Positions 48,416-63,520 of a stretch of 64,000 nucleotides of DNA are shown piece after piece. A program made the position numbers and the translations under genes. This DNA is from a virus. The stretch lies in the IMG/VR virus record IMGVR_UViG_3300015063_000001, positions 779-64,778 of that record. The stretch is one strand, 5' to 3'. Each line of letters begins with the position of its first letter. The first letter of the stretch is position 1. The notes below the pieces were generated by a model. The model did not search any database. It saw only the letters and a list, made by a program, of their open reading frames with translations, and was not told the origin of the DNA.

Positions 48416-51400
48416 ATGGCATCCCTTGATGACAGTGGCGATTGGGAAGACGTGTCTTCCCCTACGCCGCCTTCTGGTCTCAGCGCTGCGGCGCCATCGC
48501 CCCAACCTGCCGCCGCGCCGGCACAGGCCAAGGCGCCGGCCGCACAGGTGGCCGGCGGCGACGAATGGGAGGATGTCCCGCAGTGGCGGGGGTATCTGCC
48601 TGTCGCCGCGTCCGCCGTGGCCCAAAGTGCCGTTTCCTCGACTGGGTCTCTGCTCGCCGGCCTACCGGAACTGAGCGGGGACTATAATACCAAATTGCTG
48701 GCGAACCTCGATCGCATCGACCGCGGCGAAAAAGTGCCGATGGCTGATGACCCGATCGGCTATCAGGACATGGATCCTGAAACCCGCAAGCACACCAGGG
48801 CTGACGTCGAGGCGGCAAAGGCGGCTTACAAGCCGCAGGAAACGATGCTCTACAAAGCCGGCCACGCGATTAAAGAGTTCGGGGAAAAGCAGTTCCCGAT
48901 GTCGCTGGACGAACAGAAGTCGATCACGGCACAGGCTGCCGGCGTAGTCGGCGGCATGGCACCTTACCTCGCCGCCGGCGCTGTGCTCGGCCCAGAAGCC
49001 GCCGTAGGTCTCGGTATGGCCGGCATGGGCCTTTCCAGTGCCCATGAACAGGCGGAAGCCGCTCGAGCGAAAAACGCCTCGCCGGAAGCGGTGGCCGAAG
49101 CCGCGCGCATGGGCTTCTACAGTGGTGCCGCCGCGGGCGCGGTGCCGCTGCATGCCGTGATGACGCCGGTCGAACGGCTGGCGCCTGGCATCGCGGATTG
49201 GGCGCGGGCGCGGCTTCAACATGCGGCGCAGACCGGCGTTGCCTTTGCCACGCTTGGCGAAGCGCAGACCTGGCTCGGTCAACAGATCGCACAGAATTTT
49301 TATGATCCGGAGGCCGGCTACTCGCTCGATATTCAGCGCGTGCTCGGCGGCCTGCTCGGTGGTGCCTTCCTGGGTGGTATGGGTCGTACACCGTATCGCG
49401 GTGCCGAACAGCCGGCCGCGGAGAAGCCGAATCAGCACTCCGATGCCATTCAGGATATTCTCGGTGGTGAACCGCCTGGACCGCCAGCACCTCCTGGTGC
49501 TCCCGCTGTGGAGCCTGGAGAGCGTCGGCCGTACCCGGCCGAAGATGACGTTTCAATTCTCGGTGGCGATCGGCCAACCGGCGTTCCAAATGTCGACGAC
49601 TACGTTGACCAGTCGATGCGTAACCTTCGCGCGACGTCGCGCACGGTTGCCGGAACGCTGGATACCTCGTCGACCCCAGGCAAGGAAGAGAAGCTTGTTG
49701 ATGGCCTGACGCCCAAGGCTGCCGCGACACAGGCCGCCTCAAATTACGAAGGCATCGTTCGCCGGCTGTACGATTACAAAGACGATATCCCGACCACCGG
49801 CCCGGAAATGGGGACGCTGGTTAATGACGTCGCCGTTGCTGTAAACAATGGCATCGTCAAGCCGGGCCAGTTGGAGCGCACGACCAACACAAAATTCCCG
49901 ATGCAGACCAGGGCGGAGGATCTTCCGATTGCCTATGGTCAATTCTCTCAGGAATTGGCCGAGCGCCTTTCAAACCCTGCTGCGGATCCGGTCGAGACCG
50001 CGGCATGGATTGAATGGCGCGCAAACATGCTGGACCATTTCTGGACGGATGGCGTCGGCAAAACGTCGAAGGCGCTGGCGGCGATTCCTTTGATGCGGAG
50101 CGGCTTGCCGCTTCCGATCTATCCGCCGATGAAAGACTTTGTTGCGTTCGCCAAGGAACAGCCGCGCGTTGATCCGCTTGAAGGTGGCGCGGCATATCTC
50201 GGGCCGGCGTGGGAAAAATTCAATGCGTTCTACCACGACATGGTTTACCCGCAGAAAAGCCTGCAGGCCGCGCTTGATCGTGGGGCGACCGCCGACGAGC
50301 TAAGTCAGCATCCCATGGTGCTCAATGCCGTGGCGGAAAACAGCAGTCGTGTTCCAACCGGAACACCGGAGGATTTCCAGAACCCGGAATGGCGCAGCCA
50401 GCGCGTTTACAACATTAGTGGTCAGCCCGTCAGGGGTTGGGATGCCGCTGTTTCTGCCCTGACGAATCAGGCCAGCGCATATTCCGGTGGTCAGGTCGAG
50501 CATGGGCGCCATGCCGTCATTGTGCTCGGGCCCCCGGCTGCAGGCAAGTCGTCCATTTCGGAACCTGTTGCGCGGAAATATCGGGCCGCGATCGTTGACC
50601 CCGACGACGCGAAAAAGATCATTCCTGAATATCACAACGGCCTCGGCACCAGTGCTGTGCATGAGGAAAGCTCTGAACTCGCGATCGACGTCCTTAAGAA
50701 CATTGCGCGCGACGGTGGCAACATCGTCTTGCCAAAAGTAGGAGCGAGTGCCGATGGCATAAAGAAACTGGTTAACCGCTTGAAACAGTTGGGGTATACG
50801 GTCGATATCGCCCATGTGGCGGCTACACCAGAGATTTCGGCCCGGCGGAACATCGCTAGATTTCTGAATACCGGACGGCTTGTTAAGCCAGAATATATCA
50901 CTGAGGTAGGTGACAAGCCGCGCAAAACGGCCTATATGTTAAGGGGAGATGCAAATGACTTCATTGACGCCGACACATCCAAAGGCCACTACGAACTCGT
51001 CGAAGGAAACGGGCCGCTCGCCGACATTTTCCGAGATGGAAGAAATTTCGGACAAGGCGCAGATTCGGGCACTGGACGAGCTCTTGGCCGAGCGGAATCA
51101 GAAAAAGGACTGACCGGGGAGCAGGTCCCCGGCATTCCTGAACATCGCGTGACCGCTGCCGACGGCACGGCTATCGATGTCGCGCCGATCGTTGTCGAGG
51201 CATCGAGTCTCAGGACCTCTCAGGATCCCGGCTACGATACCAGCCTGCAGCCGCGGCAGCGCGATCGAGCCGCCAGCCAGGCACAGGTCCGCGACATCGC
51301 CACCAATCTCGACCCAGAACGTCTTGGCTATTCGGCCGAGGCTGATCGCGGGGCGCCGATTGTCGGACCTGACGGCATGGTGGAAAGCGGCAACGGCCGT

Positions 51401-54400
51401 GTGCTCGCGCTCCGAAGCGTTTACGAGCAAGGCGGACCGCAGGCACAGGCCTATCGGGATTGGCTGACGCGCCAGGGCGTCGACGTCTCCGGCTATCAGA
51501 ACCCGGTTTTGGTCCGGAAGCGCGTCACGCCGATGTCGCCACAGGAGCGGCGGTCGTTCACGGTCGCCGCGAACCAGGCCTCAACGCTCAGTATGTCGGC
51601 GCCGGAACGGGCGATGGCCGATGCGCGGCTGATGGATGCGCGGTCGATCGGCTTAATACGCAACGCAGAAGATATCGGCGCCCCTGCAAATCGTGACTTT
51701 GTTCGGCGTTTCGTTTCGCTGTTGCCGCAGGCTGAACAGGGGGCGATGGCTGATGCGCGCGGCGCCTTGTCGGCGGAAGGTCTGGCGCGGGTGCGTAATG
51801 CTGTGCTCGCGAAGGCCTACGGCGATGCTAGCGTTTTGGCGCGCATTGCGGAGTCGACGCACGATGAAGTCCGGTCGATTTCCAACGCCTTAACTGCCGC
51901 GGCGCCTGAGTGGGCGCGGATGCGCTCCGAAGTCGAGGCCGGCCGCGTCCGGTCTGATATGGACGCCACCCCTGATCTGCTCGAGGCAGTAAAGCGCACC
52001 GCAGATATTCGCAGCCGTGGCGAAAAGCTTGAAAACTATTTGGCGCAGCAAGACGCCTTCGACAAGATGCCGGCGCAGGTCGAGGCATTCATGCGAATGT
52101 TCTACGACCCGAAGGGCAATCGGGCAGCGGCGGCGATGCGGATTGCCCGCGCGCTGCGGCTCTATGCTCAAGAGGCTGCAAAAGTTAATGCCGATGAAGG
52201 GCTTGGTTTAGGCTTGGTCCCGGTGAAGCCGCGCGATATAACGCGGCTCGCCCTAGAACGGGAGTGGGAAGATTATGAACCAGATGCGGGAGTTTCCGAC
52301 CGCGGCGGCCTTGGTGACCGCACGGGCGGCGAAGAAGCTGGCCGGGCAGTACGGGGACCTTGGCTTGGCGAGGGCCGCAAAGGATCTCGAGAAGAGGGCT
52401 ATGGAGGCGATCAAGAATCGGCAGTCCGTGCTCAGCGACCAGAGCGCCCATTCAGCCTCAAAAACCTAACGACCGTTCCTGGTGTTGAGCAAGTCGATCT
52501 TGCCGGCGGGAAAAAGGGCGATCAATACGTCTTCCCAGGCACCGAAAAGATTTCCGCGGCCGAGCTTATGCGCCGGCGCGCGGCGGAGCCGATGCGGCCG
52601 AAGGTCGAGCAGAACACTACCGCTAGTGGCCTGTTCGGCGATGGGGCACAACAGCTAAGCCTGCTCGATGCCGCGAGGAAGGCTGCCGCAGAGCCCGTTG
52701 ACAAAGGTCCCATTGTACCCCAAATAGAGGGAACGGAGGCTGCAAATGCAAGTCGCGGAGAACCCGAAAGCGGCGGCATACGCACAGGAACACAAGAGGT
52801 TCCTGGAGGAAAACCGGCCGGACGTGCTCGCCGGGCTACGCCGATCGGGCGACCTGAACAGCTATCTCTCTTCGGTGGGGGAGCAGGCGAGCGATCTGTT
52901 TTTGACGCTAATGATGCAGTACAAAAACAGCCCGGAAATACGGAAGCTCCCGCACCTGGCGCTAGTACAAGCGTTACAAAGCCGCCGGAGGGAAGCCGAC
53001 GAGTTGGTGAGGCACGACATAATCCACCAGCCGTTGAAGGACTGAACGAAGCGCAGACCAAGATTGCGCAGCGCTCCCGCTCGAATTACCGAATTACTGA
53101 TGCCGACAAGATTGGCGAAGGTGGCCCGCGCCAGAAGATTCGCGGCAACCTCGAGGCAATCCGTATCCTCAAGACCATTGAGGATGAAAACCGCGATGCC
53201 ACGCCTGGCGAAAAGGCAGCCCTTGTGCAGTACGTCGGCTGGGGCGCCTTCGCGCAAGATATGTTCGCGCCGCACAAGACGGAATTGAAAGCGGAACGCG
53301 ATACGCTGCGATCGCTGGTCACCGATGAAGAGTTCAACGCGGCTCGAGGGTCTACACTAAACGCGCATTTCACGTCGCCTGACGTCGTCCGCGGCATGTG
53401 GGATGCCATCAATCATCTCGGCTATGACGGCGGGATGGCGATCGAGCCGGCGGCCGGCGTCGGCCATTTCATCGGCATGATCCCGGATAAGGTGGCGCCG
53501 AAGACGGCTTGGACGGCGGTTGAGCTCGACCCGCTTACCGGCCGTATCGCAAAGGCGCTCTACGGAAACGCCGAAGTCAACGTTCACGGCTTTGAGGACT
53601 TGAAGCGGCCATCGAACTATTACGATCTCGCGATCTCGAACGTTCCGTTCGGCAATTACAATATTTCGGAAAAGCCGTATGGCTCGTTTCCGATCCATGA
53701 TTTCTTTTTCGTCAAATCGCTCGACAAGGTTCGGCCCGGTGGCGTCGTCGCATTTGTGACGTCGCGCTACAGCATGGACCGCGTCGACGCCAACACGCGC
53801 CGGCTACTCGGCAAGACGGCCGATCTGGTCGGGGCCATCCGGTTACCTGGCGGCAACAAGGGCGCCTTTGCCGGCAATGCCGGGACGCAAGTCACCACCG
53901 ACGTCATGTTTCTTCGCAAGAAGATTCCGGGCGAGGCGCCGTTCCCCGGCGCCAACTGGTTTGACCTGAAAGAAATCCAAACCCCGGACGGCCCGACGAA
54001 AATCAACGAATATTTTGCCGATCATCCTGAAATGATGCTTGGTGAAATGCGGTTGCAGAGCACCATGTACCGGGACAATGAACCGGTGCTTATTGGTGAC
54101 GCCGAAGGCCTGCAGGACAGGATTGCCGCCGCGGCGCAAAACATGCCGAAGGGCGCCTTTGTCGCTCGCGACACCCCGCCGCCGCCGCCTATCCACGGCA
54201 ACGATATCGCGGCCGGCATCAAGGATGGCGCCTTCTTCTTGCAGGACGGCAAGCTGCACCAGCGCCGCGAGGGGCAGGGCTTTGCTCATCCGCTCAACGC
54301 GGAGGACCACGACCGCGTTACGCGGCTCGTCGGCATGCGCGACGTCGTCAACGATCTGTTGGCGACACAGCTTGCCGGCGGTGAGAACTCGGCAGCGCAA

Positions 54401-57400
54401 GCCGAACATGGCCGCGCCAAGCTGCGGGATGCTTATGATGCCTTTGTCGCCAAACACGGGCCGATCAATAAGGAAGAGCGCACCGTAACCAGCCGGCTTA
54501 ACAAGCTTGGCGAACCGGTGACAATCACTCGGTATCCGAACATCGCTAAGTTCATGGCGGATCCTGACGCTTGGAAAGTTGCGGCGATCGAGAACTACGA
54601 CACCGAGACCGGAAAGGCGAAGCGGGCCGATATCCAGACCAAGGATGTCATCGACGCGCCGATGGAACGCCAGATCAACGGGCCGTCCGATGCTCTGGCG
54701 GCTTCGTTGGACTTCACCGGCGGCGTCGATCTCGACCACATCGCACAGTCTCTCAATTTACAGACGCAGGAAGACGTCGTTCGCCATCTTGGCGATTTGG
54801 TCTACCAGAACCCGGACGGCCGGAAATGGGAGACCGCCGATAGTTACCTGTCCGGCGACGTGGTCAAGAAGCTTGATGATGCCCGCGCCATCGCCGCCGA
54901 AGACACGTCGTATATGCGCAACGTGTCAGCGCTCGAAAAGGTCCAGCCGGAGCCGTTGACCGGCTCAGACATCACGGCGCAGTTCGGGGCGCCATGGGTT
55001 CCAGGCGACGTCTACGAAAGCTTCCTCAAGGAAATCGGCGGTCAGGGCGTCAAGGTCAAGCTGGTCCCGTTGACCGGGGAATGGCGGTCAAGCGCCACGA
55101 TGTATTCCCGCGATGCCAGAGCAAAATATGGAACGGATCGTGTTGAGACAGCAAAGATAGTCGATGCCGCCCTCAACAATAGGCAGATCACGGTTTGGGA
55201 TGAGCACAGCGATGGAAGCAAGTCAGTCAACGAAAAGTCTACCACGGAAGCCAGGGTTAAGACCGAACTGCTGAAAGAGACGTTCACCGGCGACCAGGAA
55301 CACGGCATCGACGGCTGGGTGTTCGCAGATCCGGAGCGCGGCCAACGGTTGGAGGCGATCTACAATCGCACATACAACAACCTTGTGCAGCGCAAGTTCG
55401 ACGGCACGCACCTGACGCTGCCTGGGCTCAATCCTGATTTCGCGACACGCCAGCACCGCAAGGATGCAGTTTGGCGGATCGTCCAGAACGGCAACACGTT
55501 GCTTGCACACGACGTCGGGACTGGAAAAACCGCGACAATGATTGCGGCGGCGATGGAGCAAAAAAGACTTGGCTTAATTAATAAGCCGATGATGGTTGTT
55601 CCAAATCATATGTTGGAACAGTTCTCGCGCGAGTTTATCCAGGCGTATCCAGACGCTAAGATTTTGGTCGCGCAAAAAGACGAGATGACCAGGGAGAACC
55701 GCAAGGCGTTTCTGGCGCGCGTGGCGTCCAACGATTGGGACAGCGTCATCATTACGCATGATGCCTTCGGTCGCATTAACATGGGGCAGGAGTTCCGCAG
55801 GGCCTTCATCCGCGACCAACTCGACGAATTGGATCGGGCCATTAAGGCGGAAGCCGCTGAAAGCGATAAGAAGTCGCCGACGGTAAAGAGCTTGGAAAAG
55901 GCAAAAAAGAAGCTGCAGGGGCGGCTTGAAAATTTGATGAATGAAGAGCGCAAGGATGCTGGGACCAATTTTGAAGAATCCGGCGTCGATAATCTCTTCA
56001 TCGATGAAGCGCATTGCTTCCCATACAATACGATGGTCCAGACAGATCGCGGTCCAATCAAAATTGGTGAGATCGTTGAGAGGCAACTATCGGTTTCTGT
56101 CGCCAGCATAGATCACCGGACCGGTCGCCTTATATGGAATCCGATCCACAATTATTGGCGGCACAATCGCGGCAATAAGCAGTTTGTGCTTGTAAAAACC
56201 GATAAATCTGACATACTTTGCACAGTCAATCATCGAGTATTTGTGGATGGGCGAGGGTATGTCAGGGCAGATGAAATCAAGCCGGGAGAGGCTTTGCGCG
56301 CTTTGCCAGAGGCCGTTTGTGCCAGCGTCGCGCGGCAGACTTGGGAATACCCAGAAGCATTGCTCGCGCCAGTGTGCGAAAACGGCAGCCAAGAAACTAG
56401 TAGAAAAGAATTGCGAACTGTGCGGCGAGCCGTTTCAGTTTCGCAGTTCTGGAAAGACGAACAACGACAAGCGACGGTTTTGCGGCAGTCCATGTGCGGC
56501 GTCATGGCGGATGGCGCAGCCTGGGCGGATGGAGAAGTCCGCGCCGATGTGGGCCGCTTCGCGGAAGAAATGGTTGGAGCCAGAATACAAGGCCATGATG
56601 GCGTCGGCATCATCAAAAAGAATGCTTGCCGACAACCCGATGTCAAACGCGGATATCCGGCAGAAAGTCAGCGTGTCGCTGAGCGGGCGGACTTTTCTAT
56701 CTCGCGGCGGCAACGGCCAGCCGACGAAGCCGCAGTTGCTACTGCATGGCTTGACCGGTCTTCCCATGGAATATGCAATACTGACGAAGCCAGTGCACGG
56801 TCGATTTCAGAGTCTGCCGCAATGCTACAAGGTGGATTTGGCGGACCCGGTGCGCAAGTTGGCTATAGAGGTGGACGGCAACAGCCATCGTTCTCGGAAA
56901 TGGAAGTTTCTGGACCGACGCAAGACAGAAATACTGAATGCGCTCGGGTGGTCAGTGTTGAGATTCTCGAACGAGGAAGTGATCGCGAACCCAGAACTGG
57001 TGGTTCAGAAGATAGCTTCGTTTATGATCTCGGCGTCGCCGGCGAGCACAATTATTTCGCCAATGGAGTCCTAGTCCACAACTCGTTCAAGAACCTAGCT
57101 TTTATAACTCGTATGCAGCGCGTCAAGGGCTTGGCGCAGGGTGATAGCCAGCGCGCCGAAGACCTGTTCCTCAAGATTCAATACTTGGAACAGAAGCGGC
57201 CGGGGCGAGCGGCGGTGTTTGCCACCGGGACGCCGGTCTCTAACACGATGGCCGAGCTTTGGACGATGCAGCGGTATTTGAACCTGCGTGCGTTGAAAGA
57301 GCGCGGACTGGATACGTTCGATTCCTGGGCTTCGACCTTCGGCCGCGTCGTCAACAATATGGAATTGTCGGCTGACGGTCGCACCTTCAAGGAGGTGTCG

Positions 57401-60400
57401 TCGTTCTCGAAGTTTGTCAACGTGCCGGAACTGGTGTCTCTGTATTCAGAGATCGCAGATACAAAAACGGCGGACATGCTGAAACTGCCGACGCCGGATG
57501 TCAAAACCCGCAGCGGGGCGCCCGGCATCGAGATCGTCCAGGCGGAGCCTTCTTCCCAGGAAGAAGCGCACATCCAGAAATTGGTCGAACTCGCGGAATC
57601 GCTCAAAGGCAAGCGCCCTGAAAAGGGCCAGCCGAACATGCTGAGCGTGGTGACGGAAGGCCGCAAGGTCGCCACCGATGGTCGGCTGATTTCGCCTGAT
57701 TTTGATTTCAACCCGCAGGGCAAGATCGCCCTGGGCGTCAACAATATCCATCGCATATGGGAAGAGGGCAACGCTGACCCGTCGGCGCCGAACAAGGTGC
57801 AGATGGTGTTCCTCGACATGGGCGTACCGAAGAGCAAGGCCGCGGCAAAGAAGAAGCCGGCTGACGTCGATCTCGAGGAAGGTGCCGACCCGGCACAGGA
57901 AGCGGCGCCGCGCATCGACCTGTACGCCGACATCAAGAAGCGCCTTGTCGACGCCGGCATCCCGGCGAAAGAGATCGCAGCAATTCATGACGCGACGGAC
58001 GACGACAAGAAGGCAAAACTGTTCCAGAAGGTCCGCAACGGTGAAGTCCGGGTTATCTTGGGATCATCCGGAAAGATGGGCGTCGGCACAAACGTCCAAG
58101 ACAAACTTATCGCGATGCACCACTTTGACGCACCGTGGAAGCCAGCGGATGTCACGCAGCGCGACGGCCGTATCGTGCGGCAAGGCAACAAGAATAAGGA
58201 CGTGCAGATCTACCGCTATGTCACGAAGCGCTCTTTCGACGCCTTCATGTGGCAGAAGCTTGACACCAAATCGAAGTTTATCGGGCAGGTTTTGTCGGGG
58301 GCGAAGGGCTCCCGCCACGCCGAAGACATCGACAACCCGCTGCCGGAAGCTGCGGAAATGAAGGCGGCCGCGTCTGGTGACCCGCGGATTATAGAGCACG
58401 CCGAACTCGATCGCCAGGTCCGCGCCTTGTCGGCGCAGCGTAGATCGTTTGACGCGACGAAATCGCGGGCGCAGTGGGAAACCGGAACGGCAAAAACCCG
58501 TATTCAGGGATACGAGGACGCATTGCCGAACGCCAAGGCCGATGCTGCCAGCGTGCAGGATTTGGCCGGCGACAAGTTTAGCGCTGAGCTCGGCGGCTCG
58601 GTGGTGACTGATCGCAAGGTGGCCGGGCAGGCAATCCTAGATCGGTTATTGGCTGTTGATGCCCGCACCTTCTACACGCCGAAGATTGTCACGCTCGGCA
58701 AGCTGTCCGGCTTCGATATGAACGTCGAACTGCGTGGCGGCTGGGATGGCTCGTCGGCCATTCTGCGGGCGCAGCCGTCACTCAAAGGCAAGAGCGGCTA
58801 CGGCACGCCGAACGATACGGTCATTAATGCGCAGACCGATCCCGGCGGCTTGATCCGCCGGTTTGAAAATATCCTCGGTAACATCCGGCAGAACCCGGAC
58901 CGGTTGGAACGCGAGTTGGCCGGCGAAAAGGACAGCGTTGCGAAACTCGAAAAGACCTTGGGCGAGACATGGCCGAAGGAAAATGATTACCGCGCCGCGC
59001 TGGATAAGCTTCATGCGCTGAGCGAGTCGTTGAAGGCGCCGAAGCATCCCGACGTCTTTACGGAAGAGGTGAAGGAGCGCCGCGGCGGCTGGGATCAGGC
59101 CGAAGGCCGCGACATGGGCCCGAAGCTTGGCGAGACCGCCGTTCGTATCGGGGCAAAAACGGAAGCCCATATCAAGCCGACCGAGCGCTACACGGCGGCT
59201 GAGAAAAAGATTGCCAACGCTGTTGCCGAGATCGGTCAGCGCATGGCGCCGCAGGCCGACGTCAGGGGCGCAGCCGCGCTCCGGCAGAACGGCAATCAGA
59301 TATGGGGTGCCTTCGTCAACAGCGAGGCCTTCCCGCACCTTGTCGCGTGGTCTCTCGAAAAGGGCAGTCCGGCCCAGATTGCCGGCACGGTGCGCCATGA
59401 AATTGTCCATCATCTCCGTGAGGCCGGTTTGATCCGTCCGAACGAATGGGCGGCATTACGCGATGCGGCGGTCAAGGATGACTGGCTCGGCAAGCATAAC
59501 ATCGAGGACCGCTATCCGGACCTTTCAATGGACCGCAAGGTGGAAGAAGCCGTTGCCGAACAGTTCTCAAAATGGCGCACTGAACGGTCGATCGAAAAGC
59601 CAGGCCTGATCCGGGACGCCTTCCAGCGGATCGAATTGCTGTTCCGCCGTGTGGCTGCGGCGGCGCGCAGCTTCATGGGCAAGGATGCCACCGCCAATGA
59701 CGTCTTCACTAGGATTGAAACCGGCGAAGTCGGCGCTCGCCATTCCGACCAGATCGAGGCGCAGAAGCGGTATTTGGCACAAGACAACCGCGAGGCCGCG
59801 CAGACGCCGGGCGAAGAGAACCGGAAGCGGCGCGAGTTTGCGCGCGGTTTGCCCGGCGCGGAGCCGACCATTCGTGATAGGATAGTGCAGGCTGCCGATG
59901 CTCTGCGGGCTAAGGCGGCCGAGTTCTCTGAGAAGATTGGCGTCGATCAAATCGTCCGTGACATGCAGATGCGCGTGGCGCCGATGGCGGCGCGTGACGC
60001 CACCGTGCAGTCCCGCGCGATCGCCAAGGAGTTCATCAACGCGCGCCGGCAATCCAGGCAATCCTGGAATGCCGCCGACAAATACATCATGGACAATTTC
60101 CCGCCGGAGCGCCGCAAGGCTATGTGGGATGCCGCTGACGAGCAAAGCGTTGCGATGCAGCGCGGCCGGTCGACGGTGGGGATCGGCCTCGACCGTCTGC
60201 CACCGGATGAACGGCGTGTTGTCGAAATGCTGCAGGCCCGTGGTGAGCGCAATCTGAAAGACGCCAACGATCTCGGTATGATCGAAAGCGAAGGCCTTCC
60301 GAGCTACGCGCCGCGCATGGTGGTCCGCATGGCGGAAGGCAAATACGAGCATGGGGCTGGCCCCGGTGCCGAAGTGGTTCGTGACGTCCGAACCTTGGCG

Positions 60401-63400
60401 CTCGCCAACGCACGGCTCGAAGACGCCATTGCGGCGCGGCGCCTTATCAACTCTATCGAGGAAGTCGGCAAAAGGAGTGGTAACCCGACCGTCAACGATG
60501 GCGGGGCTCCGACGCGCAAGATTGGTGCGGAAGGCCAAATCGCGAATGTTCTCGACCAGATCGGTCGCGGCGTCTCGACGTCGACGCCGCAGTTGAAGCA
60601 CCGCAAGTATCTGACGACGGAAGAAACCGAAGCGGCGGCCAATAAGGTTCCGGTGGCCGATAAGAATGCCCCGGATTGGTTCACGCTCAATCACCCGGCG
60701 TTTACGAAGCTTATGCCGCGCATGACCGACTCTGACCCGAAAACCTATCGGGATGCAGTCAAGCGCGTCAGCGGCATGACCGTCGAAAACAAGCAGGTCC
60801 CGGCCCGCGATGAAGACGGCAATATCATCTATGACCGCAAGCCGATTTACGTCCGGGCCGATTTCGAGGGTCCGCTTCGCGCCGTTCTTTCCAAGGACAC
60901 CGACCGCACCTACCGCGCCTTGATGGCCCTCAAGGGCAAGGTGATGTCGGTTATCATGATGTCGCCGCTTATCCACAATCAAGTGGAATGGGGCCGCGCG
61001 CTGCCGGTGGCACCTGGCAAGGTGGTCACGTTCCAGACCTATCTCGAGGGCAACAAGGTTGCCAACGATCCGAAACTTATGAACCGCGCCATTGCTGGTG
61101 GCGTCGTCCCGATCGGCGGACACGGCTATATGCAGGATATCGTGTCGATCGCGGAAGCGCCGACGGTGCGGCCTGGCCGGTCGTTGACGGCCAAGGGCTT
61201 GGGCTACGGCGCCGAAGGCCTCGGGTATCTGACGCGGCTTTATAACCCGCGCTCAGGCGCTAATGAAGTTCGCAATGCCGTCGATTGGTTCGGAAACGTT
61301 TGGCACAACCGGATGCTTTGGGACCGCATTCGTGACCTGCAAATGGGTCTGTGGTCGCACGTCAATGAAACTATGGTCGGTAAAGGATATGATCCTTATA
61401 GCGCCAACGTGGCGGCGGCACACTTTGCAAACCGATATGCCGGCGCACTGCCGATTGAAGCGATGTCTGGCATCGCCCGCGGCATTGCCAACGTCTTGCT
61501 GTTCTCGCGGAGCTTCACGCTCGGCAACCTAGGCGCCTACAAGGACGCCATCCTCGGGCTGCCGCGTGACGCACAGGCGATGATCCAGCAAAACGTCGGA
61601 TACGCCGAATTACAGAAGGTTCAGAGTTACGTGAAACGAAAGTCGCTGGCGATGCTGGCGATCGACGCCGGGCTTTATTACGCGACATTGTCGGCCCTGC
61701 AGAGCGCGTTCAACGTGGCCGGCGTCGGCCATACCGTCAGCACGCTCGGCGGCATGATTGCCGGCGGCGCCCTTGGCGGCAAAGGCGGCACGTTCGGCCG
61801 GTTGGCTGCGGCGGCGGGTATGGGCGCGGCCGGGTTCGGGCTTGCCAGCGTTCTCGGCGCGTCAAAGGGTACCCGCGATCTTGAGGACGAGCTCGGCCGG
61901 TACTGGACCAGGTTCTCCGATCTGCTTGGTCGTGTTGGCGAGCATCCGTTTGAAACGATTGGCAACCCGTTCAAGATGCTGGAGTCGCTCGGCTCGACTG
62001 CGGAAAATGAGCCCGGCAAGAAGAGCCGCCTGCTGATCGGCTACCAGCCTGACGGCACGGCGATCTACGCGCGCCTCGCGGTCGGCAAGGTCACAGAAGA
62101 GTTGATGGGCTACATGACCGAGCCGAACGAGATGCTTCATCGTAAGCTGAGCACCTTCGCCAGACCGTTGTCGCAACTTTATAATAACGACGCCGGCTTT
62201 GGGCATCCGGTGTATGACAAAAAAGCTGATACGCCGTACGCTGTCACGAAGAACATTATCAAAATTGCCGCCCTGATTGTCGGTGACCAGATACCGGTCG
62301 ACACCATCAAGGGTGCCATGGACTGGTACGGCGGCGGACCGGGCTCCGAAGTGTCTGGCATGAAGGCGATCGCGCCGTTCATCGGCACGACGATCTCAAA
62401 GGGCTTCCCTGGTGGGCCCGAGCTCGGCGTATTGCAGGACGCAAAGGATCGGCAGAAATACCGAGTGCAGGAAGCGTTGCCCGGCATCCGCGAGCAAATC
62501 AAAAAGGGCGATACCGAAGGCGCAGTAGCCAAGATGGAAGAACTGCATATCCCGCGCGGGCTGCAGGGCTACTACATTCGCACGACGCAAGACCCGGCAT
62601 CGCGGCTCTCCAAGCGCGAGATGCACGATTTCATGCAATACGCCTCGCCGGACGAACAGCGCGAGTATGAGAACACGCAGCGGAACAGGCCGACTACGGA
62701 CGGCTCGGCACCGAAGCGCGCCGATGGCGGAAAGGTGGAGGCTGACTACGACACCGCGCTAACGCCGGATGAAGAGGCAAGCTTCCAACAGTGGAAGGCG
62801 GACAATGCACCGCACGATTCTGGCGCGGACTATGACCTCCGTGGTGCGTTCAAGGCCGGCCTGTCGCCCGCCGCCGATGGTCATTGGGATGACACCTTCA
62901 AAAAGCCGAACCATCCGACTTTCAGCATCTATTCCAAATATGCGAAGGATCGGCCGGAGTTGGCCGGGACATGGAATGGCGATCAATACATCCCGCCCGT
63001 TCCTGCCCGCGCGCACGGCGGCCGCGTCGAGGCGGCAAACATCAATCACAATCCGACTGAGGCGCAGAAGCACGCCGGCAACTACGCAAAAGATCACGTA
63101 AGAATCCACGGCCACGACATCACCATCGAGAACGCCAAAGGCAAACGCCGGCACGGCGTTGGTCAAGACGGCAAGCCATGGTCCGCCGTGCTCGGGGCAC
63201 ACTACGGGTATTTTAAAAAATCTGAGGCCAGAGATGGCGATCATGTCGACTGCTACCTCGGCCCGCACATCAAGTCCCCGCACGTCTTTGCCATCGATCA
63301 AGTCGACCACAGGACCGGCAAATACGACGAAGCAAAAATCTGTCTTGGTTTCGCAAACGAAAAGCAGGCGTTGCGCGCCTATGAGGCCGGGTTCTCGGAT

Positions 63401-63520
63401 GGCAAAGGCCGCGATCGCATCGGCAAGGTGCACGCTATGACCGTGCCGCAGTTCCGCGCGTGGCTGAAACACGGCGATACAAAGCGGCCGTTCCGGCATG
63501 TGGAGACGGCCGAAACCTAA
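48416..63520 (+). CDS. giant (5034 aa) virion-associated polyvalent protein: Fic-like, zeta-toxin-like kinase, ddrB-ParB, N6-adenine methyltransferase plus SNF2 helicase (DarB-like, with intein), zincin metallopeptidase, InPase-like
   Basis: HFWTDGVGKTSK; GPPAAGKS; VESGNGR; EPAAGVG and NVPFG; HDVGTGKT and DEAH; RHEIVHH...EEAVA; PTEAQKHAGNY...DGDHVDCY. Confidence 0.92.
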   Translation: MASLDDSGDWEDVSSPTPPSGLSAAAPSPQPAAAPAQAKAPAAQVAGGDEWEDVPQWRGYLPVAASAVAQSAVSSTGSLLAGLPELSGDYNTKLLANLDRIDRGEKVPMADDPIGYQDMDPETRKHTRADVEAAKAAYKPQETMLYKAGHAIKEFGEKQFPMSLDEQKSITAQAAGVVGGMAPYLAAGAVLGPEAAVGLGMAGMGLSSAHEQAEAARAKNASPEAVAEAARMGFYSGAAAGAVPLHAVMTPVERLAPGIADWARARLQHAAQTGVAFATLGEAQTWLGQQIAQNFYDPEAGYSLDIQRVLGGLLGGAFLGGMGRTPYRGAEQPAAEKPNQHSDAIQDILGGEPPGPPAPPGAPAVEPGERRPYPAEDDVSILGGDRPTGVPNVDDYVDQSMRNLRATSRTVAGTLDTSSTPGKEEKLVDGLTPKAAATQAASNYEGIVRRLYDYKDDIPTTGPEMGTLVNDVAVAVNNGIVKPGQLERTTNTKFPMQTRAEDLPIAYGQFSQELAERLSNPAADPVETAAWIEWRANMLDHFWTDGVGKTSKALAAIPLMRSGLPLPIYPPMKDFVAFAKEQPRVDPLEGGAAYLGPAWEKFNAFYHDMVYPQKSLQAALDRGATADELSQHPMVLNAVAENSSRVPTGTPEDFQNPEWRSQRVYNISGQPVRGWDAAVSALTNQASAYSGGQVEHGRHAVIVLGPPAAGKSSISEPVARKYRAAIVDPDDAKKIIPEYHNGLGTSAVHEESSELAIDVLKNIARDGGNIVLPKVGASADGIKKLVNRLKQLGYTVDIAHVAATPEISARRNIARFLNTGRLVKPEYITEVGDKPRKTAYMLRGDANDFIDADTSKGHYELVEGNGPLADIFRDGRNFGQGADSGTGRALGRAESEKGLTGEQVPGIPEHRVTAADGTAIDVAPIVVEASSLRTSQDPGYDTSLQPRQRDRAASQAQVRDIATNLDPERLGYSAEADRGAPIVGPDGMVESGNGRVLALRSVYEQGGPQAQAYRDWLTRQGVDVSGYQNPVLVRKRVTPMSPQERRSFTVAANQASTLSMSAPERAMADARLMDARSIGLIRNAEDIGAPANRDFVRRFVSLLPQAEQGAMADARGALSAEGLARVRNAVLAKAYGDASVLARIAESTHDEVRSISNALTAAAPEWARMRSEVEAGRVRSDMDATPDLLEAVKRTADIRSRGEKLENYLAQQDAFDKMPAQVEAFMRMFYDPKGNRAAAAMRIARALRLYAQEAAKVNADEGLGLGLVPVKPRDITRLALEREWEDYEPDAGVSDRGGLGDRTGGEEAGRAVRGPWLGEGRKGSREEGYGGDQESAVRAQRPERPFSLKNLTTVPGVEQVDLAGGKKGDQYVFPGTEKISAAELMRRRAAEPMRPKVEQNTTASGLFGDGAQQLSLLDAARKAAAEPVDKGPIVPQIEGTEAANASRGEPESGGIRTGTQEVPGGKPAGRARRATPIGRPEQLSLFGGGAGERSVFDANDAVQKQPGNTEAPAPGASTSVTKPPEGSRRVGEARHNPPAVEGLNEAQTKIAQRSRSNYRITDADKIGEGGPRQKIRGNLEAIRILKTIEDENRDATPGEKAALVQYVGWGAFAQDMFAPHKTELKAERDTLRSLVTDEEFNAARGSTLNAHFTSPDVVRGMWDAINHLGYDGGMAIEPAAGVGHFIGMIPDKVAPKTAWTAVELDPLTGRIAKALYGNAEVNVHGFEDLKRPSNYYDLAISNVPFGNYNISEKPYGSFPIHDFFFVKSLDKVRPGGVVAFVTSRYSMDRVDANTRRLLGKTADLVGAIRLPGGNKGAFAGNAGTQVTTDVMFLRKKIPGEAPFPGANWFDLKEIQTPDGPTKINEYFADHPEMMLGEMRLQSTMYRDNEPVLIGDAEGLQDRIAAAAQNMPKGAFVARDTPPPPPIHGNDIAAGIKDGAFFLQDGKLHQRREGQGFAHPLNAEDHDRVTRLVGMRDVVNDLLATQLAGGENSAAQAEHGRAKLRDAYDAFVAKHGPINKEERTVTSRLNKLGEPVTITRYPNIAKFMADPDAWKVAAIENYDTETGKAKRADIQTKDVIDAPMERQINGPSDALAASLDFTGGVDLDHIAQSLNLQTQEDVVRHLGDLVYQNPDGRKWETADSYLSGDVVKKLDDARAIAAEDTSYMRNVSALEKVQPEPLTGSDITAQFGAPWVPGDVYESFLKEIGGQGVKVKLVPLTGEWRSSATMYSRDARAKYGTDRVETAKIVDAALNNRQITVWDEHSDGSKSVNEKSTTEARVKTELLKETFTGDQEHGIDGWVFADPERGQRLEAIYNRTYNNLVQRKFDGTHLTLPGLNPDFATRQHRKDAVWRIVQNGNTLLAHDVGTGKTATMIAAAMEQKRLGLINKPMMVVPNHMLEQFSREFIQAYPDAKILVAQKDEMTRENRKAFLARVASNDWDSVIITHDAFGRINMGQEFRRAFIRDQLDELDRAIKAEAAESDKKSPTVKSLEKAKKKLQGRLENLMNEERKDAGTNFEESGVDNLFIDEAHCFPYNTMVQTDRGPIKIGEIVERQLSVSVASIDHRTGRLIWNPIHNYWRHNRGNKQFVLVKTDKSDILCTVNHRVFVDGRGYVRADEIKPGEALRALPEAVCASVARQTWEYPEALLAPVCENGSQETSRKELRTVRRAVSVSQFWKDEQRQATVLRQSMCGVMADGAAWADGEVRADVGRFAEEMVGARIQGHDGVGIIKKNACRQPDVKRGYPAESQRVAERADFSISRRQRPADEAAVATAWLDRSSHGICNTDEASARSISESAAMLQGGFGGPGAQVGYRGGRQQPSFSEMEVSGPTQDRNTECARVVSVEILERGSDREPRTGGSEDSFVYDLGVAGEHNYFANGVLVHNSFKNLAFITRMQRVKGLAQGDSQRAEDLFLKIQYLEQKRPGRAAVFATGTPVSNTMAELWTMQRYLNLRALKERGLDTFDSWASTFGRVVNNMELSADGRTFKEVSSFSKFVNVPELVSLYSEIADTKTADMLKLPTPDVKTRSGAPGIEIVQAEPSSQEEAHIQKLVELAESLKGKRPEKGQPNMLSVVTEGRKVATDGRLISPDFDFNPQGKIALGVNNIHRIWEEGNADPSAPNKVQMVFLDMGVPKSKAAAKKKPADVDLEEGADPAQEAAPRIDLYADIKKRLVDAGIPAKEIAAIHDATDDDKKAKLFQKVRNGEVRVILGSSGKMGVGTNVQDKLIAMHHFDAPWKPADVTQRDGRIVRQGNKNKDVQIYRYVTKRSFDAFMWQKLDTKSKFIGQVLSGAKGSRHAEDIDNPLPEAAEMKAAASGDPRIIEHAELDRQVRALSAQRRSFDATKSRAQWETGTAKTRIQGYEDALPNAKADAASVQDLAGDKFSAELGGSVVTDRKVAGQAILDRLLAVDARTFYTPKIVTLGKLSGFDMNVELRGGWDGSSAILRAQPSLKGKSGYGTPNDTVINAQTDPGGLIRRFENILGNIRQNPDRLERELAGEKDSVAKLEKTLGETWPKENDYRAALDKLHALSESLKAPKHPDVFTEEVKERRGGWDQAEGRDMGPKLGETAVRIGAKTEAHIKPTERYTAAEKKIANAVAEIGQRMAPQADVRGAAALRQNGNQIWGAFVNSEAFPHLVAWSLEKGSPAQIAGTVRHEIVHHLREAGLIRPNEWAALRDAAVKDDWLGKHNIEDRYPDLSMDRKVEEAVAEQFSKWRTERSIEKPGLIRDAFQRIELLFRRVAAAARSFMGKDATANDVFTRIETGEVGARHSDQIEAQKRYLAQDNREAAQTPGEENRKRREFARGLPGAEPTIRDRIVQAADALRAKAAEFSEKIGVDQIVRDMQMRVAPMAARDATVQSRAIAKEFINARRQSRQSWNAADKYIMDNFPPERRKAMWDAADEQSVAMQRGRSTVGIGLDRLPPDERRVVEMLQARGERNLKDANDLGMIESEGLPSYAPRMVVRMAEGKYEHGAGPGAEVVRDVRTLALANARLEDAIAARRLINSIEEVGKRSGNPTVNDGGAPTRKIGAEGQIANVLDQIGRGVSTSTPQLKHRKYLTTEETEAAANKVPVADKNAPDWFTLNHPAFTKLMPRMTDSDPKTYRDAVKRVSGMTVENKQVPARDEDGNIIYDRKPIYVRADFEGPLRAVLSKDTDRTYRALMALKGKVMSVIMMSPLIHNQVEWGRALPVAPGKVVTFQTYLEGNKVANDPKLMNRAIAGGVVPIGGHGYMQDIVSIAEAPTVRPGRSLTAKGLGYGAEGLGYLTRLYNPRSGANEVRNAVDWFGNVWHNRMLWDRIRDLQMGLWSHVNETMVGKGYDPYSANVAAAHFANRYAGALPIEAMSGIARGIANVLLFSRSFTLGNLGAYKDAILGLPRDAQAMIQQNVGYAELQKVQSYVKRKSLAMLAIDAGLYYATLSALQSAFNVAGVGHTVSTLGGMIAGGALGGKGGTFGRLAAAAGMGAAGFGLASVLGASKGTRDLEDELGRYWTRFSDLLGRVGEHPFETIGNPFKMLESLGSTAENEPGKKSRLLIGYQPDGTAIYARLAVGKVTEELMGYMTEPNEMLHRKLSTFARPLSQLYNNDAGFGHPVYDKKADTPYAVTKNIIKIAALIVGDQIPVDTIKGAMDWYGGGPGSEVSGMKAIAPFIGTTISKGFPGGPELGVLQDAKDRQKYRVQEALPGIREQIKKGDTEGAVAKMEELHIPRGLQGYYIRTTQDPASRLSKREMHDFMQYASPDEQREYENTQRNRPTTDGSAPKRADGGKVEADYDTALTPDEEASFQQWKADNAPHDSGADYDLRGAFKAGLSPAADGHWDDTFKKPNHPTFSIYSKYAKDRPELAGTWNGDQYIPPVPARAHGGRVEAANINHNPTEAQKHAGNYAKDHVRIHGHDITIENAKGKRRHGVGQDGKPWSAVLGAHYGYFKKSEARDGDHVDCYLGPHIKSPHVFAIDQVDHRTGKYDEAKICLGFANEKQALRAYEAGFSDGKGRDRIGKVHAMTVPQFRAWLKHGDTKRPFRHVETAET
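50949..51113 (+). CDS. nested +1-frame ORF overlapping the end of the zeta domain (candidate antitoxin)
   Basis: SD AAGGGGAG before ATG 50949/50955; MQMTSLTPTHPKATTNSSKETGRSPTFSEMEEISDKAQIRALDELLAERNQKKD* (manual translation). Confidence 0.55.
   Translation: MQMTSLTPTHPKATTNSSKETGRSPTFSEMEEISDKAQIRALDELLAERNQKKD
52275..52469 (+). CDS. nested +1-frame ORF, small helical protein
   Basis: 53 of 64 codons end in G/C in this frame, versus about half in the host frame; GGAG upstream. Confidence 0.65.
   Translation: MNQMREFPTAAALVTARAAKKLAGQYGDLGLARAAKDLEKRAMEAIKNRQSVLSDQSAHSASKT
52746..53045 (+). CDS. nested +1-frame TnpV-like protein
   Basis: SD GGAGG with 6-nt spacer; Y...HKRFLEENRP...L..SGDL..YL..V.EQA...A.E.V..DII fits the TnpV pattern. 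Confidence 0.75.
   Translation: MQVAENPKAAAYAQEHKRFLEENRPDVLAGLRRSGDLNSYLSSVGEQASDLFLTLMMQYKNSPEIRKLPHLALVQALQSRRREADELVRHDIIHQPLKD
56015..57082 (+). mobile_element. class 1 intein (356 aa) inserted directly after the helicase DEAH motif
   Basis: Block A CFPYNTMV, block B CTVNH, block F VYDLGV...HNYFANG, block G VLVHN/S; removal restores IDEAH-SFKNL. Confidence 0.93.
56241..57074 (+). CDS. zinc-ribbon plus Vsr/DUF559-like endonuclease in the +1 frame, entirely inside the intein
   Basis: CALC, CSRQC, CELC, CGSPC; YKVDLAD...LAIEVDGNSH...DRRKTEILNALGWSVLRFSNEEV; alternative ATG starts at 56259 and 56271. Confidence 0.85.
   Translation: MWMGEGMSGQMKSSRERLCALCQRPFVPASRGRLGNTQKHCSRQCAKTAAKKLVEKNCELCGEPFQFRSSGKTNNDKRRFCGSPCAASWRMAQPGRMEKSAPMWAASRKKWLEPEYKAMMASASSKRMLADNPMSNADIRQKVSVSLSGRTFLSRGGNGQPTKPQLLLHGLTGLPMEYAILTKPVHGRFQSLPQCYKVDLADPVRKLAIEVDGNSHRSRKWKFLDRRKTEILNALGWSVLRFSNEEVIANPELVVQKIASFMISASPASTIISPMES

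Follow-up and report, generated by a model that had tools for sequence, protein, structure and literature searches.

Can one stretch of viral DNA carry a complete small gene and, in another reading frame, the middle of a giant one? The question is posed by a 64,000-nucleotide stretch of the IMG/VR virus record IMGVR_UViG_3300015063_000001 (positions 779 to 64,778 of that record; the whole stretch is referred to here as the window), in which a 99-codon open reading frame (ORF) resembling tnpV lies at 52746..53045 on the plus strand, wholly within an open frame of 5,034 codons (48416..63520, plus strand) that appears to encode a polyvalent protein with methylase and helicase domains. A reading made earlier from the sequence alone (the sequence-only reading) had placed the small ORF just upstream of a separate DarB-like methyltransferase gene. 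Our analysis favors a different layout, in which the same DNA encodes two proteins and tnpV is nested in the giant gene; we consider this the best explanation of the locus as a whole and give it a probability of roughly three in four.

The start signal of the small gene can be read directly from the sequence, as the sequence-only reading had it: a Shine-Dalgarno sequence, GGAGG (52735..52739, plus strand), stands inside the giant ORF 6 nucleotides (nt) ahead of the ATG at 52746, separated from it by the spacer ctgcaa (52740-52745), and the frame closes with TGA at 53043-53045. The TnpV family had been named in the sequence-only reading, and the profile hidden Markov model (HMM) check proposed at the time returns it. 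The 99-residue product matches Pfam TnpV (PF14198) with 46.2 bits (E=5e-12) over profile positions 19-111 of 111, where the curated gathering cut-off is 27 bits, and when all six frames of the virus record are searched with the same profile it is the single match, at 46.5 bits. By BLASTP the product is 30% identical to a canonical Firmicute TnpV (E=1e-13), and 30 relatives of 88-134 residues share 48-82% identity with it. The AlphaFold2 model is all-helical, with five helices and a predicted local distance difference test (pLDDT) score of 90.7, and the ESM Atlas cluster nearest to the predicted fold consists 100% of PF14198 members (template modelling score, TM, 0.78). High-GC stretches are rich in long alternative-frame ORFs (126 of at least 50 residues in 19 kb), so that a spurious ORF with a chance likeness to TnpV might be suspected; that explanation is refuted by the HMM match and the homologues of similar length, together with the confident fold and the BLASTP match, and retains practically no probability. 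Judged by these comparisons, the 99-codon ORF is a real TnpV-family gene.

The surrounding frame is just as recognizable. Pfam domains in its 5,034-residue translation are Zeta_toxin (residues 700-831), ddrB-ParB (residues 916-1036), SNF2-rel_dom, ResIII, Helicase_C and a C-terminal InPase, with the methylase-helicase module starting at residue 1543. The methylase gave no Pfam match in the window; it is 35% identical over 1,020 residues to an N6_Mtase-matching Firmicute ORF and carries an NVPF motif. The N-terminal part of the module (53042..54265, plus strand), comprising the LPD36 region of PMC5512222 and the methylase, is recovered by tblastn in the stretch after tnpV in nine other loci at 69-85% identity, and at 35% identity in the Firmicute N6_Mtase/ResIII ORF. 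Ahead of it lies an interdomain linker rich in Gly, Pro, Ala and Arg (residues ~1400-1545; 52613..53050, plus strand), most of which is written in the -1 frame of tnpV. On this domain evidence the giant ORF is a DarB-type methylase-helicase polyvalent protein, in which an adenine methylase is fused to an SF2/SNF2 helicase, and its product is probably a virion or ejection protein.

The tnpV gene lies in the +1 frame of the giant ORF. The giant frame contains no stop, and between 52592 and 53225 it also contains no ATG, GTG or TTG, so the methylase-helicase part lacks its own start codon; the stretch that can be aligned with methylase-helicase N-termini opens at 53042, overlapping the tnpV stop codon. 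The gene that had been placed just upstream of a methyltransferase gene is thus found inside a single ORF. Third-position GC (GC3) follows a coding pattern throughout the giant ORF except over nested genes. Over tnpV, GC by codon position is 0.64/0.36/0.76 in the tnpV frame and 0.76/0.64/0.36 in the giant frame for the same bases, while the giant gene overall has 0.65/0.46/0.68, a profile that the tnpV frame, not the giant frame, resembles over this interval. By this measure the tnpV frame is the older and stronger coding signal over 52746-53045. The disappearance of the giant-frame signal over tnpV speaks for the picture drawn in the sequence-only reading, in which tnpV stands as a gene of its own between two others, an upstream module and a methylase-helicase, and the 5,034-codon frame would be a chance read-through in GC-rich DNA; the stop-free giant frame and the absence of a start codon for the methylase part already speak against it, and comparison with relatives bears on it further.

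For this comparison the DNA of 17 further loci was used, and a methylase-helicase-linked set of 10 soil and viral loci, the window included, was defined. The methylase-helicase N-terminus follows directly 3' of tnpV in 10 of 10 linked loci and is always in the -1 frame relative to tnpV; a conserved +1 ORF ahead of homologous methylase domains is thus a constant feature of these linked loci. In nine of the 10, the -1 frame is open for thousands of codons upstream and on through tnpV, while the third frame has 2-8 stops. When TnpV codons were redrawn at the codon frequencies of the giant gene in the respective locus, 2.6-6.1 giant-frame stops were predicted where none is observed (P = 0.0002-0.05 per locus, eight loci). 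Stand-alone copies of the clade also have the -1 frame open, with resampling P values of 0.02-0.04 in L003, L006 and L012 and of 0.18 in L010. A GGAG-like site precedes the tnpV start in most related loci. In a TnpV tree the window's clade stands apart from the Firmicute sequences (100/100 support), and the stand-alone high-GC copies, several of which sit alone in chromosomal islands, fall within the nested clade; since they also keep fragments of the giant frame, they look like remnants of giant genes.

The same arrangement recurs in Firmicutes. Of 80 tnpV loci, no two from the same GTDB species, the -1 frame runs open across tnpV in 39, also where GC is as low as 38-41%, and it extends for ~283 residues upstream and for 1,666 or more downstream; in the remaining 41, which are stand-alone copies, stops interrupt the -1 frame, and the third (+1) frame is open in none of the 80. 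A Shine-Dalgarno-like AAAGG/GGAG site, most often gAAAGGAG, lies ~7-9 nt before the ATG in all 36 nested Firmicute copies examined. In Firmicutes the tnpV frame dominates the substitution pattern (ratio of third- to second-position differences, d3/d2, 1.7-4.4). In Subdoligranulum variabile (L022; OY725878.1 134982-153275), a canonical TnpV (PF14198, E=5e-42) is nested in a 1,989-residue ORF with methylase and helicase domains following an N-terminal domain that we take to be ArdC-like, although it has no Pfam match. A second tnpV in the same record is stand-alone and comes right after a TnpX-like large serine recombinase. No methylase-helicase was found near stand-alone tnpV in the 38 loci with a defined ORF, within up to 5 kb on each side, many contigs ending sooner. 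TnpV is hence often, but not always, tied to the methylase-helicase module: the proposal that it is a dedicated partner of DarB-like methyltransferase-helicases is supported in part, by the fixed linkage in all 10 methylase-linked loci and by the 39 nested Firmicute loci, and goes too far in view of the 41 stand-alone Firmicute loci and the chromosomal-island copies. Co-capture from a mobile element was also proposed; understood as capture of a separate gene, it does not fit a tnpV that is overprinted on the giant ORF's linker.

A read-through that recurs in nine of the 10 linked loci and, at GC contents down to 38%, in 39 of the 80 Firmicute ones, and with so small a chance of zero stops at each locus, is hard to attribute to base composition, and we regard three independent genes as very unlikely, even though one relative (L002) has just such a structure, with a separate upstream gene ending before tnpV and the giant gene split into separate genes. 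Nesting accounts for the locus better. At the level of the DNA, both frames are open and conserved, relatives keep them open beyond chance, and tnpV has a predicted internal ribosome-binding site. We infer that both proteins are made and that TnpV may act with the giant protein.

Several observations weigh against this reading. L002 does not conform: within L002:1-900 the methylase-helicase frame opens at 298 and its conserved N-terminus runs from 607, yet the first ATG, GTG or TTG is at 826, so that the first 176 conserved methylase-helicase codons lack a canonical start and simple read-through does not explain this locus. Outside the motifs described below, giant-frame amino-acid identity among relatives is 0.415, close to the 0.402 of the unused third frame. 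The virus DNA was found in soil metagenome runs of one study, and no RNA run was found to contain it. The fold of TnpV offers no functional lead, as searches of the PDB with the model returned Foldseek E values of 2.9 or above and a best VIA-align Z of 7.1, which is the noise level for helical proteins.

The structure of L002 also bears on programmed frameshifting, which could take the form of a -1 slip out of tnpV to give a TnpV-methylase-helicase fusion or of a +1 slip out of the giant frame to end at the tnpV stop. In L002 the tnpV ATG is the only canonical start before the 176 conserved codons, and the frame relation between the two genes is fixed in all 10 linked loci, as slippage would require. 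However, a slippery heptamer of the form X XXY YYZ is absent from the tnpV frame in 11 of 12 loci, the single one found is not conserved, and the interval 52300-53400 has no Rfam match; with no conserved heptamer and no Rfam element, frameshifting is unsupported. The C-terminal tails of TnpV moreover differ in length and end point among the clade loci, and read-through requires no slip in nine of the 10. We consider frameshifting distinctly unlikely, and return to the nested layout.

How, then, would the two proteins be produced? Ribosomes starting at 48416 would read through to give the 5,034-residue polyvalent protein, in which bases 52746-53045 would encode a flexible spacer between the ParB-type and methylase-helicase modules, and ribosomes loading at the internal GGAGG/ATG (52735/52746) would give the 99-residue helical TnpV from the +1 frame. 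No promoter-like site was seen around tnpV, and the only terminator-like site there lies on the minus strand and is at or below chance expectation, so tnpV is probably translated from the giant gene's mRNA, with which it would be co-transcribed. TnpV would be the older layer, over which the giant frame would have been laid and kept stop-free by codon choice; in the soil-phage clade the spacer would then have gained short functional peptides, chiefly QLSLFGG.

This peptide (giant-protein residues 1482-1488; 52859..52879, plus strand) is where the overlap is most constrained. It is encoded by the same bases as TnpV (N)SYLSSVG, and 16 of 17 loci share a 17-nt core, TATCTCTCTTCGGTGGG, without any change while its flanks vary freely. 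The TnpV residues Y-L-S-S-V-G are spelled TAT CTC TCT TCG GTG GGG in all loci, save for one TAC and some GGC. Four core sites are silent in TnpV and held only by the L, F, G and G of the giant frame; another four are silent in the giant frame and held only by the Y, L, S and V of TnpV; none of the eight ever varies. The sole core variant, TAC in L017, alters only the middle residue of QLxLF, giving QLPLF, and the census of the giant-frame motif over the 17 loci is QLSLF in 15, QLPLF in one and LLSLF in one. The Gln of the motif, spelled CAG or CAA, persists where the TnpV residue that overlaps it differs (Asn for Ser in L007). In place of the Y-L-S-S-V-G of the window's clade, canonical TnpV reads H-L-E-E-V-D, so TnpV has changed at otherwise conserved positions exactly under the motif of the other frame. 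These patterns demonstrate, as far as substitution can, that both frames are under selection at the QLSLFGG motif, and the dual-coded motif is what is new in the window's clade.

A second island of the same kind is VTKPP (giant-protein residues 1520-1524; 52973..52987, plus strand), overlapping TnpV LQSR, for which the rare codons TTA and CAA are used; this codon pair never changes across the 10 methylase-linked loci, and some stand-alone copies have drifted from it. Because of these two islands, nucleotide differences by codon position across the clade are almost flat (0.369/0.337/0.425). Outside the conserved islands, the linker is by its substitution pattern a spacer that mainly must stay open. 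Just before the tnpV start, where the DNA codes for one protein only, relatives carry a D/E/N-L-F-G/D motif written with synonymous codons (CTT TTC, TTA TTC, TTA TTT, CTC TTC), a variation that indicates selection on the peptide; the window has GLFG (giant-protein residues 1405-1408; 52628..52639, plus strand) as a second LFG-type motif, placed farther upstream of tnpV and followed by QQLSLL at residues 1412-1417.

The invariant 17 nt could instead be a signal in DNA or RNA, for instance a site that is bound or a structure by which translation is tuned, with QLSLF as its by-product. The core is equally invariant in stand-alone high-GC copies without a giant ORF, two of which, L006 and L012, also have no canonical start in the -1 frame. 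A nucleic-acid element and a peptide explain this equally well, and it counts against dual coding. These copies do, however, keep the -1 frame open and resemble giant-gene remnants. Furthermore, every substitution is compatible with the peptide (the one core change hits only the tolerant middle residue, and Gln is written either way), the neighboring D/E-LFG motif varies synonymously, the flanks of the block are not conserved, and no Rfam family matches. A nucleic-acid signal is accordingly doubtful, if less so than the other alternatives considered, and selection on two peptides is the preferred explanation of the block.

What might the peptide do? QLSLF is the consensus pentapeptide for binding the beta sliding clamp, and Pol II, Pol IV/V and Hda are clamp clients with a QL[SD]LF motif. 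No sliding clamp encoded by the virus record was found, so any clamp target would be that of the host. Giant-protein residues 1462-1506 were modelled with Escherichia coli DnaN, standing in for the host clamp, together with three controls. The interaction prediction score from aligned errors (ipSAE) was 0.80, against 0.00 for the best of the three controls; in a benchmark, 51 of 78 solved complexes attained the same ipSAE mark, as did two of 108 mismatched pairs. Contact agreement between runs was at least 56% and partner pLDDT at least 47. The modelled contacts join peptide residues 1478 and 1480-1486 to clamp residues 172-177, 242, 247, 278, 320, 344, 346 and 360-366, which make up the known peptide cleft. 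Three points temper this result: many clamp-peptide complexes have been solved, so the model's pass may be memory and shows likeness; the clamp is a stand-in; and QLSLF is absent from the equivalent giant-frame linker of both cultured phages described below. Like the established clients, the window's peptide has the exact consensus, lies in a low-complexity stretch, is conserved among relatives and is placed by the model in the canonical cleft. It differs from them in being internal rather than terminal, in belonging to a virion or anti-restriction protein and in being encoded in overlap with tnpV, and its binding is a prediction. In our reading, QLSLFGG would dock the injected methylase-helicase onto the host beta sliding clamp and thereby onto DNA under replication.

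For TnpV itself, our best guess, offered with low confidence and resting only on its conserved position, is that it may serve the methylase-helicase module as an accessory factor or in assembly. A bolder idea is that the overlap is itself functional, and that a joint action of TnpV and the clamp-docking peptide is what holds the two on the same 21 bases; TnpV might, for example, bind or mask the QLSLFGG linker until injection, or compete at the clamp. We regard this as speculative and rather unlikely; if true, the linker of a phage anti-restriction methylase-helicase would encode the very protein that controls the enzyme's delivery to the host replisome.

Elements of this arrangement are familiar from other systems. 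TnpV of Tn4451/Tn4453-type elements (PF14198) is matched by the window gene in the above-cut-off HMM score, in size, in the all-helical fold, in 30% identity and in carriage on mobile elements, the window coming from an 81.6-kb virus record (98% complete) and its relatives lying in viral contigs and integrase-bearing islands. The window gene differs in belonging to a distinct high-GC clade with YLSSVG in place of HLEEVD, and in being nested in a phage virion gene, whereas tnpV of the Tn4451/Tn4453 type sits beside the TnpX recombinase. Rz1 inside Rz of phage lambda is a pair of embedded, same-strand overlapping phage genes and there too an entire small gene, equipped with a ribosome-binding site, is read in the +1 frame within a larger one, both frames being conserved; unlike Rz1, the small gene of the window belongs to an old and widespread family, and the overprinted layer is the linker of a 15-kb gene. 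Polyvalent proteins of the methylase-helicase type of phage P1 DarB were defined by Iyer et al. 2017 (PMC5512222), and the giant protein shares with them an LPD36-type N-terminal region, an adenine methylase, and an SNF2-type helicase fused with Zeta toxin and ParB-like domains, but has in addition an intein and an InPase domain. In that paper TnpV, overlapping genes and clamp motifs have zero occurrences each, and a full-text literature search for TnpV returned element catalogues only.

If the nested layout is right, it corrects two errors of annotation pipelines, which at this point either miss the nested tnpV or split giant polyvalent genes. It also assigns the widespread TnpV family to a fixed genetic context, namely the interior of methylase-helicase genes carried by phages and conjugative elements in at least two phyla. 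The clamp-type motif suggests a hypothesis for how DarB-like injected enzymes find DNA, namely by a tether to the host sliding clamp, and the 17-nt core would illustrate, in nature, how the constraints of two proteins can together leave no base of a sequence free to change.

At the DNA level, plasmids and phages gave only short matches of 65-80%, within the methylase part, and tblastn of TnpV against phages and plasmids recovered Firmicute-type copies only, at 25-31% identity. In two cultured phages, Pseudomonas phage 8P and Erwinia phage PEp14, the giant virion gene has a low-complexity linker just ahead of its methylase part, and this linker contains an unannotated +1-frame ORF (L108:5200-6150 and L109:5200-6150, respectively). 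The clade HMM gave nothing significant on 8P and a weak match (E 0.026) on PEp14, to the +1-frame ORF at the equivalent spot.

The giant gene has further features of its own. An intein (Intein_splicing, residues ~2547-2889; window ~56054-57082, plus strand) splits the DEAH motif of the helicase; the L002 relative lacks it, its alignment skipping from residue 2535 to residue 2889. The InPase domain (PF18823, E=5e-43; window 62900-63520, plus strand) closes the protein. Two more small +1-frame ORFs lie within the gene on the plus strand. One, of 54 residues (window 50949-51113), is at the end of the Zeta-toxin domain and has weak relatives only, at 49% identity in L008 and L013 and as a short match in L020. 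The other, of 64 residues (window 52275-52469), lies upstream of tnpV and has counterparts of 52-62% identity in L007, L008, L009 and L020; a homologue also stands directly upstream of stand-alone tnpV in L003-L006, with two copies in L006, and this ORF and tnpV may belong together as a module that occurs in nested as well as in free form.

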